Notes: a model not told the origin generated them from the sequence alone. 64,000 nt of DNA from a virus (IMGVR_UViG_3300027704_000008:64001-128000); one strand, 5' to 3'. Shown: positions 27,214 through 45,786, counted from the first letter of the stretch. Program-made: numbers and translations.

Positions 27214-28116
27214 ATGATGAAAACTTTTAAGTATAGCGAAACATTCTTTTCAGCTCAAGGGGAGGGTCAGTTTACTGGCCGGCCATCTCTGTGGATTAGG
27301 TTCTATCTATGCAACTTACAGTGTGATGGGTTTGGTCAGGACGATCCGACTAACCCCGACAGCTGGGAATTGCCTTATAACGACCTCGACCTCAAGGATA
27401 TTACGACTGTCGAGGAGTTGCCTGTATTTTCTAAAGGCTGCGATAGCTCATATACCTGGTCAAAGAAGTACCGGCATCTAATGAAAGATAAGACGGCATC
27501 AGACATTGTGGATGAGCTAGAAGCTCTTCTTCCCCATGGACTGTTTGTCAATCCCGATACCAAGCAAGATGTTCATATGGTATTCACGGGTGGCGAGCCA
27601 ATGATGAAACATAATCAGGAAGCTATGTGCGCCATTATCAAGGAGTTTGCCAAGCGCAAGAATCTACCCAGCAACGTGACGGTTGAGACCAATGGAACGC
27701 AGAACATTGAAGTGTCGGGTAAACTAGCTGTATCGTGTGTTCAAAGAAATCTTAAGAATGGTAGTTGGGGAAAATGGTTCTGGAGTGTGTCACCTAAGTT
27801 GTGGAGCACTGCCGGAGAAAAGGTGGCGCGCGCTATTAAGCCTGGAGTAGTAGCAGGGTATGCGGCCGAGTCAAAATTAGGTCAACTAAAGTATGTTGTG
27901 AACGGATCGTCTGCTAGTTGGGACGAGGTGAAGGAACACACAGCTTTGTACAGGTTAAATGGAGTTGGATGGGATGTGTGGATAATGGGCGTTGGTGGTA
28001 CGGTTGAAGGTCTCAAATTAACCGAAGCTGATATAGCGGACGAGTCCATTCAACTAGGATATAGTTATACAACACGAGCTCACTGTCACATATATGGGAA
28101 TGCTATAGGAAAATGA
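27214..28116 (+). CDS. queE: 7-carboxy-7-deazaguanine synthase (radical SAM)
   Basis: F.SAQGEG..TG, CNLQC..(insert)..GCDS, TGGEP, ETNGT, VSPKL, RAH..IYGN. Confidence 0.93.
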   Translation: MMKTFKYSETFFSAQGEGQFTGRPSLWIRFYLCNLQCDGFGQDDPTNPDSWELPYNDLDLKDITTVEELPVFSKGCDSSYTWSKKYRHLMKDKTASDIVDELEALLPHGLFVNPDTKQDVHMVFTGGEPMMKHNQEAMCAIIKEFAKRKNLPSNVTVETNGTQNIEVSGKLAVSCVQRNLKNGSWGKWFWSVSPKLWSTAGEKVARAIKPGVVAGYAAESKLGQLKYVVNGSSASWDEVKEHTALYRLNGVGWDVWIMGVGGTVEGLKLTEADIADESIQLGYSYTTRAHCHIYGNAIGK

Positions 28117-39962: not shown

Positions 39963-40943
39963 ATGGCCTGGCTGTTAATACCAAACAACCGCGGTTGGCA
40001 GTATGATAATGCTCCTGCTGATCCTGGTGCAAACAGTCCATACCGACCACTGTGGGAAAAACAAACTGCGGGAGTGCGAACTAACAGTGACGGAACTCAA
40101 GTTTACACTAAAGTCCGCAAGTACGGAAGCACCGTCGATACTGCAGGCGAGATAGCTAGGACATTCTGGAATGTTAAGGGAAACGACCAAAAGTTTCAGA
40201 TGGAGGTGTTGATACCATCTGGCGGAGCAACCTTCACAATACCTTGTCAGGATGTCGGGGTATTTGATGCCACAATTGATTGGGGTGATGGCACAACAAC
40301 AACCACTACTACCTATAACGGGGCTGGACTAGCTCATGCCTATGCTGCTGGCACTTATAAGATAATGATCAGTGGCATTTTCCCGAATATACATTTTAAT
40401 AACGCTGGTGATAAACTCCGTGTAACAAAGGTGCTGAACTTAGGTCATGTTGGTTGGACAAGTTTTTTATCTGCCTTTTATGGATGCGTCAATTTAACTC
40501 AATTTTCAGCTGGTTCTTCAGATACATCAAATGTTACAACATTCGCAGCTGCCTTAGCCGGGTGTACTGGATTTACCACAGGTCATGATGTGGGATTCGA
40601 TACATCATCAGCACAAAGGTTTGATAATTTCTTTTTGTCAAGCACATTTACCGATCTCGATGGAATACAGAATTGGGACATTACTAGTCTAACTACGAGT
40701 CCAGCAAATAATCTGAAAGCATTTATGACCAACGGTGCCAAACTGTCGACATCAACATACGATGAGCTGCTAGTCAATTGGGAAGGGCAAGACCCCACAA
40801 ATACAAACAACATGGGTAATGTTAAGTTTGGTTTGAGTACGTTTACTTCAGGTAGCGCAGCAGAAACTGCTAAAGGTGTTCTTACCACCTCAGTCGCAGA
40901 GGGCGGATATGGTTGGGTTATCACCGATGGGGGTGCAGTATGA
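39963..40943 (+). CDS. PKD + BspA/DUF285-like repeat protein, copy 1
   Basis: IDWGDG, H.Y..GTY, AFYGC.NL, DTSNVT, NWD, C-terminal GW.ITDGG. Confidence 0.7.
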   Translation: MAWLLIPNNRGWQYDNAPADPGANSPYRPLWEKQTAGVRTNSDGTQVYTKVRKYGSTVDTAGEIARTFWNVKGNDQKFQMEVLIPSGGATFTIPCQDVGVFDATIDWGDGTTTTTTTYNGAGLAHAYAAGTYKIMISGIFPNIHFNNAGDKLRVTKVLNLGHVGWTSFLSAFYGCVNLTQFSAGSSDTSNVTTFAAALAGCTGFTTGHDVGFDTSSAQRFDNFFLSSTFTDLDGIQNWDITSLTTSPANNLKAFMTNGAKLSTSTYDELLVNWEGQDPTNTNNMGNVKFGLSTFTSGSAAETAKGVLTTSVAEGGYGWVITDGGAV

Positions 40944-41134
40944 TAACAAGAACTTCAGGATTTGGAATTATAGGAAAATGGGCATATTTTGCAGATAGTG
41001 ATACTCCTGCGGGTATGTGCGTTTCCTATGCTGACGATACATATGTCCAAGAGTTTGCTAGTAAAGAACTTTTGATGGATGCTCACAAAGAGCAGTTTCC
41101 AGACGAACACAGAGAACAGTTTCCAGAAGAGTAG
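40940..41134 (+). CDS. Small partner protein, copy 1
   Basis: ATGA overlap; VQEFAS.EL...AHKEQFPDEHR. Confidence 0.65.
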   Translation: MITRTSGFGIIGKWAYFADSDTPAGMCVSYADDTYVQEFASKELLMDAHKEQFPDEHREQFPEE

Positions 41135-41248
41135 ACTGATTAAAGGAATATATAATTTTTAAAATAGCTACAGCAGAACTTATAGGAAAGCATCTATCTC
41201 AGGTTGAATCTTGGTTAGATAGTATTTCCCCCGAAGATTACACAGGAT
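41048..41248 (+). repeat. ~200-bp degenerate direct repeat (second copy ~42400-42600)
   Basis: CAAGAGTTTGC..GCTCACAAAGAGCAGTTTCCAGACGAACACAGA..CTACAGCAGAACT.ATAGGAA.GCATCT.TCTCAGGTTGAATCTTGGTT.GATAGTATTTCCCC present twice. Confidence 0.85.
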
Positions 41249-41257
41249 ATAAATCAA

Positions 41258-42304
41258 ATGGCATGGAAAGGTATTCCTAACAATCCCCATTGGCAGTACG
41301 ATGATGCTCCAGCAGACCCTGGAGCAAACAGTCCATATAGACCTCTGTGGTTAAAACAAACTGAGGGAATTCGAACGAACAGTGGCGGAAACGAAGTTTA
41401 CACGAAAGTTCGCAAGGTTGGAATCACCGTCGATACTATGGGTGAGCTGAGTAAAACATTCTGGGACGCTCAAGGTGATGAGGTGTTAGGCACAGACGCA
41501 TTTGAACTGCTAATAGAAACCAATGCTGGTAACAAGTCCATGGTGCTGGGCGGCCGCAGTGGATACACTTACAACGCAGTAGTTGATTGGGGCGATGGTA
41601 CCAGTACAACATCTGTAACTCACCATGCTGATGCCGTTCACACTTATGTTACCGCAGGTGAGTATACTATTTCTGTCACAGGTACTTTCCCTGCTATTAA
41701 AATGTACAATGAACCATCAGCAGCATACATCAGGAAAGTATCGAATCTTGGAAAGGTTGGATGGAAAAGTTTTAGGAACGGTTTCTATGCGTGTACTGGT
41801 ATGACCGAATTTACCATGGGAAATACTGATACATCTGGTGTTACAGAAACACAAAATATGTTTCGTGGGTGCTCGGGACTCGTAGGCACCCTCGACCTGA
41901 CCAGTATGATAGGTTCGAATTGTGTCAACACTACCGCTATGATTAGAGAGTGTTCTTCTGTAACGTCCGTGGTTTTTACTGGATGGGACACATCTTCACT
42001 TCCGAGATTTAAAGATATGATGCACAACTGTACTGCGCTAGTGAACGTAACAGGAATAGAAGATTGGAATATTACGGGGGTGAACGTGGCAGATGCCTTT
42101 AGTCAGATACTCACAAACGGTAGAATGACAACAGCACAGTACGATGCCCTGTTGGTTAATTGGGATGCCCAGAGTCCCCTTCCGCAAACCGGAGGGACAT
42201 CGCGATTCGGAAACTCAACATATACATCCGGTAGTGCAGCAGAGACTTCTAGGACCAATCTAATAAATGAGGGTTGGACAATCTCGGATGGGGGTAGTGT
42301 ATGA
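41258..42304 (+). CDS. PKD + BspA/DUF285-like repeat protein, copy 2
   Basis: Paralog of 39963; VDWGDG, MFRGCS, WDTSS, GW.ISDGG. Confidence 0.7.
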   Translation: MAWKGIPNNPHWQYDDAPADPGANSPYRPLWLKQTEGIRTNSGGNEVYTKVRKVGITVDTMGELSKTFWDAQGDEVLGTDAFELLIETNAGNKSMVLGGRSGYTYNAVVDWGDGTSTTSVTHHADAVHTYVTAGEYTISVTGTFPAIKMYNEPSAAYIRKVSNLGKVGWKSFRNGFYACTGMTEFTMGNTDTSGVTETQNMFRGCSGLVGTLDLTSMIGSNCVNTTAMIRECSSVTSVVFTGWDTSSLPRFKDMMHNCTALVNVTGIEDWNITGVNVADAFSQILTNGRMTTAQYDALLVNWDAQSPLPQTGGTSRFGNSTYTSGSAAETSRTNLINEGWTISDGGSV

Positions 42305-42495
42305 TAATCACACAGGAGAACGGGTACTGGATTATAAACAGCGGAACAATTGCGTTAGACGAAAATATAGTTGTTTCCTACCGTGACGATGCTATTGTGC
42401 AAGAGTTTGCCAGTGAGGAACTTATGCTGGCTGCTCACAAAGAGCAGTTTCCAGACGAACACAGAAAACAGTTTCCCGAAGAGTACACCGATTAA
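42301..42495 (+). CDS. Small partner protein, copy 2
   Basis: Paralog of 40940; ATGA overlap. Confidence 0.65.
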   Translation: MIITQENGYWIINSGTIALDENIVVSYRDDAIVQEFASEELMLAAHKEQFPDEHRKQFPEEYTD

Positions 42496-42567
42496 AAGGA
42501 AGATAGGATTTTTATAATACCTACAGCAGAACTCATAGGAAGGCATCTCTCTCAGGTTGAATCTTGG

Positions 42568-42900
42568 TTGGATAGTATTTCCCCAGAATATTATACAGGA
42601 TTAGAAATAGCATTACATCTGAAATCTAAAAAAGTTGAAATGTATTTTGTATATTCAGACTCAGACAATAGTCTGATGGGAATAGTAATAGTCTCCAATG
42701 AATATGATAATACTCTAGTCGTCGTAGGTGCTGCCGGAAATGTTGATAATGAATGGGAAATGTTAGATAAAGACTACACACAACTAGCGAAGTCGAAAGG
42801 ATGTACATCTTACGAGTTTCGAGCACGTAGAGGATTTTTGCGAACATTTAAAAAATATGGAATAGTTGAGAAGTACACGGTCATGCGTAAAACATTTTGA
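42568..42900 (+). CDS. GNAT-like protein (frame open back to ~42496)
   Basis: LVVVGAAG, AKSKGC..YEF.ARRGF pattern of phage acetyltransferase-like proteins. Confidence 0.5.
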   Translation: MDSISPEYYTGLEIALHLKSKKVEMYFVYSDSDNSLMGIVIVSNEYDNTLVVVGAAGNVDNEWEMLDKDYTQLAKSKGCTSYEFRARRGFLRTFKKYGIVEKYTVMRKTF

Positions 42901-43250
42901 CGCGCAACCAACATCTCACCAAATTGGTGCGAGCACGTATACAAACAGTAATAACGGCGGTATCACATATGGAGGCACCGCATAAAGAATTCGTTGACGT
43001 AACATTGAGGCTAGGCAAACACTGGGGTTCGAAACCCCACGCTTCCACCTATAATCATTCCTAGAGTGTTTATAGGGGGAGCGATTTGGATTCGACTTGC
43101 TAGTAATAGGTGTTGCTAGAATAGGTGATGTAAGCTACCTTAAACGCGAACAAACAATATAAATGCAAATGATGCGTTTTATGGTGAGCAAGCTATAGCA
43201 GCTTAACCCACCTGAGGTTGTGGCCCTTCCTTATAATCCAATAGGGCTCC
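42901..43250 (+). ncRNA. ssrA: Circularly permuted (two-piece) tmRNA
   Basis: T-arm TGGGG-TTCGAAA-CCCCA plus 3' acceptor strand CGCTTCC-ACC (43023-43049) precedes the 5' strand GGGAGCG and GGATTCGAC (43077-43096); G3.U70 pair; tag frame 43165-43206 = ANDAFYGEQAIAA*; outer ends approximate. Confidence 0.9.
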
Positions 43251-43273
43251 TGTCAAATTAAACCCAGGAGCAT

Positions 43274-43726
43274 ATGATGAAAGTTAAAATAGGCAACTAT
43301 CCTAAGCATAGATTTTACCACAATTGGTTATATGCACTTGGCTGGACTAATGATGCTAAGGTCAGTGTCCGTATTGACCCTTGGGATACATGGTCAATGG
43401 ACTCCACCCTGGCGTACATCGTTGTGCCTATGCTACAACAACTTCGAGATACTACGCACGGAGCGCCTGTAGTATCTGACGATGACCGCCCCGAACATTT
43501 GATTGGTACTGTAGTGGATGCCAGCAAGGGAGATATTGATGAGTTTCACTTTGAAGCGTGGGACTGGGTACTAACCGAAATGTTGTTTGCTTTTGAGAGT
43601 AAGCACAGTGGTTGGGAAGGCGAGGACTGGGAAAGCGATGATTGGAGAAGAAGTGAAGCGTGGCAGCCGCGTATCACCAATGGCTTTCGTTTGTTTGGAA
43701 AGTATTACGAGAATTTATGGGATTAA
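43274..43726 (+). CDS. Conserved T4-like hypothetical protein
   Basis: IDPWDTWSMD.TLA.I..PML.QL...HG.P, WDWVL.EM.FAF, GF.LFGKYY.NLWD. Confidence 0.75.
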   Translation: MMKVKIGNYPKHRFYHNWLYALGWTNDAKVSVRIDPWDTWSMDSTLAYIVVPMLQQLRDTTHGAPVVSDDDRPEHLIGTVVDASKGDIDEFHFEAWDWVLTEMLFAFESKHSGWEGEDWESDDWRRSEAWQPRITNGFRLFGKYYENLWD

Positions 43727-43731
43727 ATATT

Positions 43732-44946
43732 ATGAATATCAGCAATGCAATGCTGGTTAGTATTATAGTTTTGTTAGGACTGTTAACAGGTTGCGGCGGT
43801 GGAGGAGGTGGTTCTGAGTCACCTCCATTAGAGGTAATACAACCTCCATTGGAGGTAATACAACCTCCTGTAGTTGTAGAACCTCCAGTGATCGTAGAGC
43901 CTCCAGTAGTTGTAGAACCTCCTGTAGTTGTAGAGCCTCCAGTGATAGAGATATCGCAGATGAGCAAACCTGAAGATTGTTTGACTGAAGCAACTGACAC
44001 AGGCAATGACATTTACGAGTACATGACGTGTGATGGCATCCTTGTGCGATCAGACATCGACTTTCCGTATGATCAATTCAATACCGAAATAGCTTTGATT
44101 GATATACTCGCAGTGGTAGACACTAAACTAGATGAAGAGCTCGATGGTGGAACTTACGAACAGTTCGCCCAGAGAGAAGTAGACCTTGCCAATAAGCTAT
44201 TTGAGGACTCGCAAGTATACATAATGCTTCGCTTGGTACACGTGCAGCTTGTCGAGGTCGCCGAGGGAGACCTGTATAAACAGATAAACAATTTTACTCA
44301 AAGCAAACGTGAATTCTCCGACCTAGATCAATGGCAGAAAGACGCAGGCGCAGATATAGCATTCTTGTTCAAGAAGATAGAACAAGAACCAATTGCATGT
44401 GGTGTAGCAATATACAACGATCTCACTCAACAATATAGGTATCGTAGAGGAGTGTCACAGTGTCACATCAACACAGTCTTTCAGCAAACTACGGTCACTC
44501 GATATTACGAACGTGCCCATGAAACATTTACTCACGAAATCGGTCACATCCTTGGCATGGACCACAACATCGAAGCAGCGGGTGCACCAAGCACATTATT
44601 TCCGTTCTCATATGGATACCTGATTCCTGGGTATGACCGAGACCTGAGCGATGAGTATAACGGATATGGTACAGTTATGAGTTATTCTGATTTAGCGACA
44701 GGACGATTCTCTGACCGCTCTGAACGATTTATCATACCAGAGACGGGAACATCTCAACGATTAGGAACAGATCGACAAAACTCTAACTATGTTGGGGGTG
44801 ATGCGATTCCAGCAACAGATGCAGTTGATCATCTCAATCGTGTGCGATACTACATGAGTCAACTACATGAGAACTTCAATGAACAGCAAGACGCCGCGGT
44901 TATGTTCAATGGCCTCCCACATACCTCCGCGCGCTGCTACTTCTAG
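43732..44946 (+). CDS. Lipoprotein zinc metallopeptidase (metzincin, M12/reprolysin-like) with Pro-rich linker
   Basis: Lipobox LTGC, Gly run, (V/I)VEPP repeats, HEIGHILGMDH, Met-turn TVMSY. Confidence 0.85.
   Translation: MNISNAMLVSIIVLLGLLTGCGGGGGGSESPPLEVIQPPLEVIQPPVVVEPPVIVEPPVVVEPPVVVEPPVIEISQMSKPEDCLTEATDTGNDIYEYMTCDGILVRSDIDFPYDQFNTEIALIDILAVVDTKLDEELDGGTYEQFAQREVDLANKLFEDSQVYIMLRLVHVQLVEVAEGDLYKQINNFTQSKREFSDLDQWQKDAGADIAFLFKKIEQEPIACGVAIYNDLTQQYRYRRGVSQCHINTVFQQTTVTRYYERAHETFTHEIGHILGMDHNIEAAGAPSTLFPFSYGYLIPGYDRDLSDEYNGYGTVMSYSDLATGRFSDRSERFIIPETGTSQRLGTDRQNSNYVGGDAIPATDAVDHLNRVRYYMSQLHENFNEQQDAAVMFNGLPHTSARCYF
43821..43945 (+). repeat. Tandem 18-21 bp coding repeats (PPLEVIQ x2, PPVVVE-type x4)
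   Basis: CCTCCATTxGAGGTAATACAA twice; CCTCCxGTAGTTGTAGAx repeated. Confidence 0.85.
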
Positions 44947-45009
44947 CCGCACGACGTCTATAAACACAGATAGTACAATCCCTCATAAAAAAGTAATTCC
45001 GGCTCTCCA

Positions 45010-45786
45010 TTGGTTGAACCGCAATATTGCATATATAATGGTATACTTTATCGGAATCACATTAGTATGCAACCCAAACTATGTCTATCAGCAACAGAAC
45101 CATTGCGCGCCGTTAAAGATGTCGCAAACCTGGCAACCAGAGCAAACCATCTATTAAATCAGCCAAACGGAAAAGGTGGAGTAATGGTGCTACCAGGTTT
45201 CTGTGGTGACGATCATTATAATATTCTATTCAGAGAGTATCTAATACATCTCGGGTATGATGTTATAGGATGGGGACAAGGACGTAACAGAGGCCACACA
45301 CATCTTAATCGCGAAGCACTATACGAACGAGTCACCGACCACTGCCACAAGACGGGATCCAGTATTACGTTAGTGGGACATTCCCTGGGAGGAATCTTTG
45401 CCAGGCACATCGCTCACATAATGCCAGACACTGTTAACCAGGTTATCACATTGGGATCTCCTTTTATGGTTCCAGTACATGATGATGGATTCAGTCCAGC
45501 TTCTCCAGTACGTGATGTATACCTCAAGCTCAATCCTGTAGCCGATGACGAAGAGATGTTATCCCTGGTTAGAGTACCACCACCTTGTCCTACGACAGCC
45601 ATCTATAGTAAGGGAGATGGAGTAGTGCGTTGGGACTTGACACTACAGCCAGGTGATGATCATAACGTACACAACATAGAGGTTGATGGAAGCCATATGG
45701 CGATGACACTCAATGCTGAGGTATGGCAACTGTGTGCGTCTAAGCTGCGTCAACATATGCCTCAGGCTTCCGTACAGGCGATCTAA
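45010..45786 (+). CDS. Alpha/beta hydrolase (lipase/esterase); true start possibly 45067
   Basis: LPGF, GHSLGG nucleophile elbow, ITLGSP, YSKGDGVV, SH. Confidence 0.85.
   Translation: MVEPQYCIYNGILYRNHISMQPKLCLSATEPLRAVKDVANLATRANHLLNQPNGKGGVMVLPGFCGDDHYNILFREYLIHLGYDVIGWGQGRNRGHTHLNREALYERVTDHCHKTGSSITLVGHSLGGIFARHIAHIMPDTVNQVITLGSPFMVPVHDDGFSPASPVRDVYLKLNPVADDEEMLSLVRVPPPCPTTAIYSKGDGVVRWDLTLQPGDDHNVHNIEVDGSHMAMTLNAEVWQLCASKLRQHMPQASVQAI

Follow-up and report, generated by a model that had tools for sequence, protein, structure and literature searches.

A circularly permuted two-piece tmRNA gene with its own tag frame in a T4-like marine myophage

Two-piece tmRNA genes have been described in several phages. 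The Methylophilales (OM43) phage Melnitz carries a two-piece ssrA gene (Buchholz et al. 2022, PMC9004378), and the same paper reports permuted ssrA genes also in pelagimyophages and in 17 of 47 related contigs. It also describes a survey of 18,146 phage genomes, 402 of which had a tmRNA gene; 53 of these genes were of the two-piece type, and 50 of the 53 were marine or aquatic (PMC9004378). The statement of a preliminary description of the present locus that phage tmRNAs are uncommon holds for phages overall, as these numbers show, but it does not hold for the nearest isolates. Four of the five isolates tested contain a permuted tmRNA above the Rfam cut-off, i.e., DLP_6, Melnitz, Mosig and HTVC008M, but not C48C1. 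The published cases and these four isolates together show that a permuted tmRNA of a phage is already a known kind of gene.

The DNA that was analyzed here, the window, is a stretch of 64,000 nucleotides and comprises bases 64001-128000 of a virus record of 138,622 bp. The record has direct terminal repeats of 127 bp, is rated 100% complete, and the G+C content of the genome is 43.5%. PHROGs assignments revealed T4-like structural genes (tail sheath, portal, scaffold and major head protein) and a replication set with family-B DNA polymerase, clamp loader, UvsX, DnaB-like helicase, primase, SbcCD-like nuclease and ligase. The capsid protein shares 66% identity with its counterpart in Phage C48C1, and 57-59% with those of DLP_6, Melnitz, HTVC008M and Mosig. 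At least half of the sampled words were found in five sequencing runs, all of which are labelled marine metagenome, and four of which may have given rise to the record. At 27214-28116, a gene for a QueE-like radical SAM protein is located (phrog_2076, E 2.7e-47), which hints at 7-deazaguanine metabolism. The gene that is the subject of this study is very probably a working, circularly permuted two-piece ssrA gene of a lytic T4-like marine myophage, descended from the betaproteobacterial-type permuted lineage.

Detection and anatomy of the gene

ARAGORN called 'tmRNA*, permuted' on the plus strand at 42955-43297, with the tag ANDAFYGEQAIAA. The Rfam model RF04321 (tmRNA_permuted) matched 42988-43206 over the full model (1-213), with 87.2 bits versus a cut-off of 47 and an E-value of 2.4e-15, and this was the sole Rfam family match across the 64-kb window. 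Also the unconstrained minimum-energy fold of 42949-43275 recovered the T-arm, the acceptor stem and the intervening hairpin. The tmRNA signal is far beyond chance. Taken together with the complete T4-like record, the ARAGORN and RF04321 results confirm the main claim of the preliminary description, i.e., that the phage has a circularly permuted tmRNA gene with a tag frame of its own. The Rfam models had been proposed there as a further check: the score was above the cut-off for RF04321, and below the respective cut-offs for the beta, alpha and cyano models.

Table 1. Features of the two-piece tmRNA gene in window coordinates.
Feature	Position	Strand	Basis or remark
Two-piece tmRNA (ssrA) gene, whole	42984..43262	+	limits are those of the block conserved in relatives
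Acceptor piece	42984..43049	+	sequence and covariance-model alignment; 5' end placed solely by the onset of conservation
P2 helices, 5' strands	42999-43005 and 43014-43019	+	within the acceptor piece
T-arm	43023-43039	+	stem TGGGG 43023-43027, loop TTCGAAA 43028-43034, CCCCA 43035-43039
Acceptor 3' strand CGCTTCC	43040-43046	+	read from the sequence
Discriminator A, then CC	43047, 43048-43049	+	read from the sequence
Intervening segment, 27 nt	43050..43076	+	hairpin closed by the acceptor stem, predicted to be removed on maturation; fold, covariation
Coding piece	43077..43262	+	3' end placed by the conservation limit, 43247 to 43262
Acceptor 5' strand GGGAGCG	43077-43083	+	putative RNase P site 5' of G43077
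GGATTCGAC	43088-43096	+	read from the sequence
P2 helices, 3' strands	43096-43101 and 43110-43116	+	within the coding piece
Hairpin upstream of the tag frame	43123-43140	+	candidate pseudoknot element
Tag reading frame GCA...GCT TAA	43165..43206	+	encodes ANDAFYGEQAIAA and stop; resume GCA 43165, stop TAA 43204-43206; ARAGORN
Post-tag pseudoknot candidate	43213..43248	+	TGAGG 43213-43217 / CCTTA 43229-43233, pairing inside hairpin GGCCC 43222-43226 / GGGCT 43244-43248

The features are compiled in Table 1. The T-arm, the 3' acceptor strand and ACC (43023-43049) precede the 5' acceptor strand and the tag frame (43077-43206), which is the permuted order. Reading of the sequence revealed the T-arm, the discriminator A, the excised hairpin and an acceptor stem of seven pairs, with G43079.U43044 as the G3.U70 pair, all at the positions that had been claimed before. 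The same was true for the resume codon and the tag frame, which were returned by ARAGORN. The base following CC is a T, and the gene, thus, does not encode the terminal A of CCA. The extent had been given as 42901..43250; the gene is indeed located there, but these limits need a small correction, because the conserved block starts about 80 nt later and ends about 12 nt further.

Two P2 pairings had been noted. The GTAACAT/GTGTTGC helix (42999-43005 with 43110-43116) is supported by one-sided, pair-preserving changes in two relatives (L175 and L216), and in the window lineage G-C is changed to G-U and U-G to U-A. The inner P2 helix is also present, but the covariance model and RNAalifold use a different register (43014-43019 with 43096-43101), with a single A.C mismatch and without the bulged G of the earlier version. 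Both registers are possible. A further hairpin, CTCCTG...CAGGAG at 43247-43270, encloses the AGGAG ribosome-binding site of the downstream ORF 43274. It overlaps the final pairs of the post-tag hairpin of the tmRNA and is not conserved; the relatives diverge after 43247-43262.

Covariation and conservation

The covariation set consisted of 16 sequences of the short size class, i.e., the window gene and 15 of 83 unique relatives, which are all those of at most 285 nt. The helices scored were P2, the T-stem, the acceptor stem, the intervening hairpin and the post-tag pairing. Of 516 cells, 95.9% were paired, versus 51-56% when the partners were slid, and compensatory changes on both sides were found in 18 of the 33 pairs; the structure was derived by RNAalifold from these same 16, related sequences, which favours the structure somewhat. 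None of 500 shuffles reached any of the five measures. The acceptor stem was 100% paired with three covarying pairs, and the G3.U70 pair was invariant in all 16 sequences. Also the T-stem was paired in 100% of the cells, with compensatory changes in three of five pairs. Such changes were seen in all six pairs of P2 and in five of the ten pairs of the intervening hairpin (91.9% of the cells paired). The post-tag pairing TGAGG/CCTTA (95% of the cells paired) hardly varied; a G-U pair is changed to A-U in the window type. The stems of the post-tag hairpin differ, yet they pair in each lineage (GGGAGTG/CACTCCC and GGTCC/GGGCC). This hairpin was left out of the formal count, because the alignment register was off by one column. 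The preliminary description had named conservation of the acceptor stem and the tag frame in homologous loci as a check, and both were indeed retained in the relatives.

Changes in the lineage of the window gene are located in loops or are one-sided and keep the pair, and in the post-tag hairpin G.U is changed to G-C and C-G to U-G. L175 and L216 match 42984-43262 at 91% and have unrelated flanks, and a third relative, L223, matches 42458-43262. Three contigs from metagenome runs (X6, X10 and X20) were found by overall similarity; they stem from relatives and not from this phage. In X10, 19 of 265 positions differ in the tmRNA block 42983-43247 and 27 of 194 in the upstream ORF, and the 84 nt between the two are replaced. 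Among the differences listed, those in tag codons 2 and 6 (43170 T>C and 43182 T>C) are synonymous in all three contigs, and those in codons 8 and 9 (43188-43190) change EQ to DT in X6 and X10. X20 is from an RNA library and covers 43103-43468 with 55 differences; it comes from a relative, possibly represents DNA carry-over, and is not proof of transcription.

These results bear on the alternative that the gene is a decoy or a relic, i.e., an RNA that does not tag proteins and instead titrates host SmpB, competes with the host tmRNA, or is a decaying passenger. A decoy role has been proposed for the tRNA-like-domain-only gene of mycobacteriophage DS6A (PMC4131195), and three features of the present case would fit: the phage encodes no SmpB, the terminal A of CCA is missing, and the fit to the beta model is, together with those of L175 and L187, the weakest among the relatives examined. 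Against this alternative, a full tag frame with synonymous changes and an in-frame stop is retained in relatives that have diverged by about 9%. In addition, pairing is kept in every helix of the tRNA-like domain, of P2 and of the post-tag region, and conservation is higher in the block than in the protein gene next to it. This alternative has a very small probability. The two-piece tmRNA of the phage is real and probably functional.

Tag group, subtype and genomic surroundings

The exact tag ANDAFYGEQAIAA was found in no other IMG/VR record in a scan with the full-tag back-translation, and a scan of IMG/VR with the exact T-arm and acceptor pattern also gave no match. The back-translated prefix ANDAFYG(D/E) matched 71 IMG/VR loci and at least 119 metagenome loci, i.e., at least 190 loci. 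ARAGORN predicted a permuted tmRNA in 145 of the 190 matches listed (65 of 71 from IMG/VR and 80 of 119 from metagenomes). About half of the remaining 45 are short loci in which a tag of 13 residues can still be read, and the others were chance matches in protein genes. Among the matches listed, 139 of the 145 permuted tmRNAs have 13-residue tags, 137 end with LAA and seven with IAA, and the tags are mostly ANDAFYGEDRLAA (59) and ANDAFYGEERLAA (31). The search itself fixed the prefix, the conservation of which is therefore no evidence; no constraint was set on the length, the in-frame stop or the ending.

Among the matches listed, 112 genes were cut out in one register, and 83 of them were unique. 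The nearest of these matches are L175, L223 and L255 (91.6%) and L216 (91.2%) over 274 nt, with the tag ANDAFYGDTAIAA, and all other unique members listed are at most 70% identical to the window gene. The full CCA is encoded in 81 of the 83 unique members among the matches listed, but not in the window gene. All five large IMG/VR contigs with a prefix gene (133-183 kb) encode a T4-type capsid protein; three of these proteins are 59-61% and two are 34% identical to that of the phage studied here. A nucleotide search of 50,697 isolate phage records with the window gene gave no match at E<=1e-5, and with a typical family member as query only partial matches to the tRNA-like domain were obtained, the best with 33% coverage. 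The string 'ANDAFYG' was not found in a search of published full texts, nor in the supplements of PMC9004378 and PMC11915505, the text of which is possibly incomplete, and no published description of the prefix group was found.

For the assignment to a subtype, the scores of the Rfam models were compared. The beta_tmRNA model (RF01850) was aligned over its whole length (1-331) with 59.8 bits, which is below its cut-off of 84, and the window gene lacks some of the 5' helices, and the terminal hairpin, that the model has. The alpha_tmRNA model (RF01849) gave 26.4 bits (cut-off 50) for the tRNA-like core only (model 90-166), and the cyano_tmRNA model (RF01851) gave 23.8 bits (cut-off 70), again only for the core (model 60-117). 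The beta alignment includes the discarded segment, where CAUUCC...GAGUGU..UAG of the window is aligned with CAUUcc..GAgaGUgUUuaG of the consensus (written out, CAUUCC-UAGAGUGUUUAUAG for the window and CAUUccacgGAgaGUgUUuaGa for the consensus). For 12 chosen representatives of the prefix group, the beta model was the best-scoring tmRNA subtype model each time, and nine of the 12 passed the cut-off, with 92.6-161.1 bits. As judged by these models, the window gene is of beta architecture, but a divergent member. The full-length beta alignment and the nine prefix-sharing genes that pass indicate that it works like, and most likely descends from, the beta type.

The preliminary description had raised the possibility of an independent permutation, i.e., that the rearranged order arose within the phage lineage from a one-piece tmRNA, independent of the bacterial permuted lineage. 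The standard one-piece model gave just 9.4 bits for the window gene and no one-piece relative was found, and both results speak against this origin. Its proponents could point to the beta score below the cut-off, to the tag of 13 residues versus 10 residues in the bacterial beta-type genes sampled, and to the phylogeny, which does not show descent. In a tree of 27 tmRNA genes, which are hand-picked representatives and not all 83 unique members, the window gene was grouped with L175 and L216 (support 100/99) and next joined with L187 and L295 (100/98), but the backbone is not resolved and is silent on the relation to the bacterial beta type. The alignment of the whole beta model includes the intervening segment, which is not constrained by trans-translation itself, and a fresh permutation is therefore disfavoured. 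As the beta model was also the best subtype model for all 12 prefix-sharing loci, an independent permutation was judged to be quite improbable, and descent from the beta-type lineage is preferred.

The tmRNA gene is flanked by a 110-aa ORF on one side and a phrog_11543 ORF on the other, at a break of synteny. The downstream ORF 43274-43726 has 551 IMG/VR relatives, and in four of the best 80 of these loci a tmRNA is present within 2.5 kb; the four tmRNAs are of one type and have a 30-residue tag. In the nearest loci the nucleotide likeness begins exactly at 43271-43277, and none of the eight upstream ORFs tested had a homologue in the best 80 of the 551 loci. Synteny was therefore no usable basis for a comparison. 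One contig holds both a homologue of this ORF (L015, 81% identical) and a tmRNA gene (L175, 91%), about 8 kb apart. Directly upstream of the block, L175 and L216 have sequence that corresponds to window positions 42361-42520, showing that the 110-aa ORF is missing there. The gene thus occupies a variable position and behaves as a small mobile block, for which no mechanism of movement was observed. Simple scans revealed no convincing sigma-70-like promoter upstream of the tmRNA and no convincing intrinsic terminator.

Several additional features of the region and of related loci were observed. Two paralogous DUF285/PKD-like genes (39963-40943 and 41258-42304) encode proteins that are 41% identical, and each gene is followed by a repeat of about 330 bp (40911-41248 and 42272-42601, 78-89% identical). 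The region 39963-42601 directly precedes the tmRNA and constitutes a tandem duplication of a module. The 110-aa ORF was considered as a further DUF285 paralogue, which was rejected on comparison. Immediately downstream of the tmRNA and of ORF 43274, genes are located for a zinc metallopeptidase of the reprolysin type (43660-44946, Pfam Reprolysin_3, E 1.8e-11) and for an alpha/beta hydrolase (45010-45786), and peptidase homologues follow the ORF 43274 homologue also in L016 and L018. The viral permuted tmRNAs with the 30-residue tag ANDKALDNVSFVNFGEQKDVRLSEDFALAA are located at about 991-1387 of four IMG/VR contigs (L074, L075, L079 and L081), 1.1 kb upstream of the homologue of ORF 43274, and the alpha and beta scores are about equal (74.4 and 68.2 bits for L074). 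Another IMG/VR contig of 97,240 bp (L094) has a beta-like permuted tmRNA at 333-771, with 70.7 bits for the beta model and none for the alpha model; ARAGORN gives the tag as VKQTLAKVIEFVVPVRSRELAMAA, and the resume point is possibly miscalled.

Tentatively, the tmRNAs with ANDAFYG tags could be a phage-only lineage, in which a beta-type ssrA gene was captured once, the tag was lengthened to 13 residues, and the gene then spread, as a cassette of about 280 bp that inserts at various genome positions, between T4-like phages of aquatic habitats with different hosts. This idea would fit the sharp block ends at 42984 and 43262 with unrelated flanks in the relatives, the nearest relative, in which the gene is about 8 kb away from the ORF 43274 homologue, and the prefix pattern, which was not found in the 807 bacterial genomes searched (0 of 5, 0 of 401 and 0 of 401). 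Beta-type tmRNAs occurred in three of 121 genomes sampled from the relevant order, and with such small samples the absence of the prefix in bacteria carries little weight. If the idea is true, the tag would be tuned to the needs of the phage and not copied from the current host. The ANDAFYG prefix is a simple handle for detection in viromes and yields a defined peptide for metaproteomes.

Proposed function and comparison with known systems

ARAGORN detected no tRNA gene in the whole phage genome, and the tmRNA is its only translation RNA. Genes for SmpB, ClpP, a CCA-adding enzyme or a tyrosine integrase were also not found in the whole genome. The tmRNA must therefore rely on partners of the host. 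The relatives Melnitz and DLP_6 do carry tRNAs, unlike the phage studied here.

The missing integrase is also of importance for a further alternative, i.e., that the locus is the remnant of an integration site, a fragment of a host ssrA gene that serves as an attP-type sequence in a temperate phage. The ssrA gene is a frequent integration target of temperate phages and islands, and these elements carry the 3' portion of the gene (PMC9004378). In the present case both halves and the whole tag frame are present, and the complete genome has a T4-like lytic gene set and no tyrosine integrase, so that an integration remnant is hardly conceivable.

For a working two-piece tmRNA, a series of steps can be proposed with general knowledge of trans-translation and with the two-piece tmRNA of Caulobacter, reportedly described by Keiler et al. 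in 2000, as the paradigm. One precursor would be transcribed rightwards together with the neighbouring genes. Host RNase P would cut 5' of G43077, 3'-end enzymes of the host would trim after ACC43049, the missing A would be added by the host CCA-adding enzyme, and the 27-nt hairpin between the halves would be discarded. The acceptor piece of about 67 nt and the coding piece of about 170-186 nt would then be held together by the acceptor stem and the P2 helices. Charging by host AlaRS would occur via G3.U70 and A73, and host SmpB and EF-Tu would deliver the RNA to ribosomes stalled on broken mRNA; the compatibility with host SmpB and AlaRS is assumed. Translation would resume at GCA43165 and append ANDAFYGEQAIAA, and the ...AIAA end should direct the product to ClpXP-type proteases of the host. 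Bacterial beta-type tags also have the ...AIAA end, and the protease signal is thus probably an ordinary one.

The most probable benefit for the phage would be that ribosomes are kept free while host mRNA is destroyed or nuclease defences cut mRNA. Published ideas are the upkeep of the hijacked translation machinery, or the tagging of proteins for recycling (PMC9004378). The countering of mRNA- or tRNA-cutting defences, which the preliminary description had suggested, would fit equally well; a retuning of tag proteolysis was proposed there as another possible role. A tmRNA in a genome without tRNA genes suggests that ribosome rescue itself is selected, rather than codon supply.

The closest bacterial counterparts are the genes of the beta_tmRNA family (RF01850). 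A search of bacteria with the pattern 'T-arm, acceptor, six bases, CATTCC' gave 60 loci, 14 of which are permuted tmRNAs. They belong to Azonexus, Dechloromonas, Rhodocyclaceae and unnamed Betaproteobacteria, and the tag is ANDEQFAIAA in 11 of the 14. The other 46 loci are chance matches to tRNAs or one-piece tmRNAs. The window gene and the bacterial genes are alike in gene order, T-arm, acceptor, the resume context UAAAUGC and the ...AIAA ending. They also share the CATTCC motif six nt after ACC in the intervening segment, and the CATTCC...GAGTG motif is common to the consensus. In contrast to the window gene, the bacterial tags sampled have 10 residues (ANDEQFAIAA, ANDERFALAA and ANDENFALAA), and the bacterial copies score 169-332 bits versus 59.8.

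By its tag prefix, the window gene is a member of the large ANDAFYG group, and it resembles the other members in the tag length of 13 residues, the beta-type architecture and the post-tag loop CCTTAT.A.CCAAT. The others differ in that most of their tags end with ...RLAA, the CCA is complete in nearly all unique members listed, and the beta_tmRNA scores are 92-161 bits for those that pass the cut-off.

A beta-type permuted tmRNA is also present in a T4-like isolate, the Stenotrophomonas phage vB_SmaS-DLP_6 (KU682439.2, 102838-103059), the capsid protein of which is 59% identical. Its tag ANDDSFAPMAIAA also has 13 residues and ends with AIAA. The differences are that DLP_6 is a soil phage, that its gene is at the head of a tRNA cluster, and that it reaches 103.7 bits with the beta model (54.2 with the alpha model); no nucleotide match between the two genes was found at E<=1e-5. 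The DLP_6 tmRNA is not annotated in the public record and has 136.8 bits with RF04321.

Melnitz, HTVC008M and Mosig are aquatic T4-like myophages of 141-147 kb, which also have a permuted two-piece tmRNA with a tag, recognized by the same tools as the window gene, and major capsid proteins that are 57-58% identical to that of the phage studied here. Unlike the window gene, their genes are of the alpha type (RF01849), with alpha scores of 106.7 bits for Melnitz (beta 25), 83.8 bits for HTVC008M (beta 56) and 67.6 bits for Mosig. Melnitz has a glutamine riboswitch (RF01739) just 3' of ssrA, which was detected with 52.8 bits as a positive control; no RF01739 match was obtained for the window with the gathering threshold, or for 41000-45000 with E<=1. 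The Melnitz ssrA gene precedes a gene for a late-transcription coactivator, in contrast to the flanks of the window gene. The beta type and the absence of the riboswitch, thus, also set the window gene apart from the Melnitz-type genes.

From the type of the tmRNA, a transition of the host from SAR11 to OM43 has been argued for Melnitz in the literature. The occurrence of a second type in relatives is a warning that the tmRNA type is a weak host marker, and a beta-type tmRNA in the Stenotrophomonas phage DLP_6 means that the type says little about the host or about a match to the host's own tmRNA. The gene described here is a further, well-documented example of the published finding that T4-like phages of aquatic habitats encode a ribosome-rescue RNA of their own, and both beta-type and alpha-type two-piece genes occur in this phage group.
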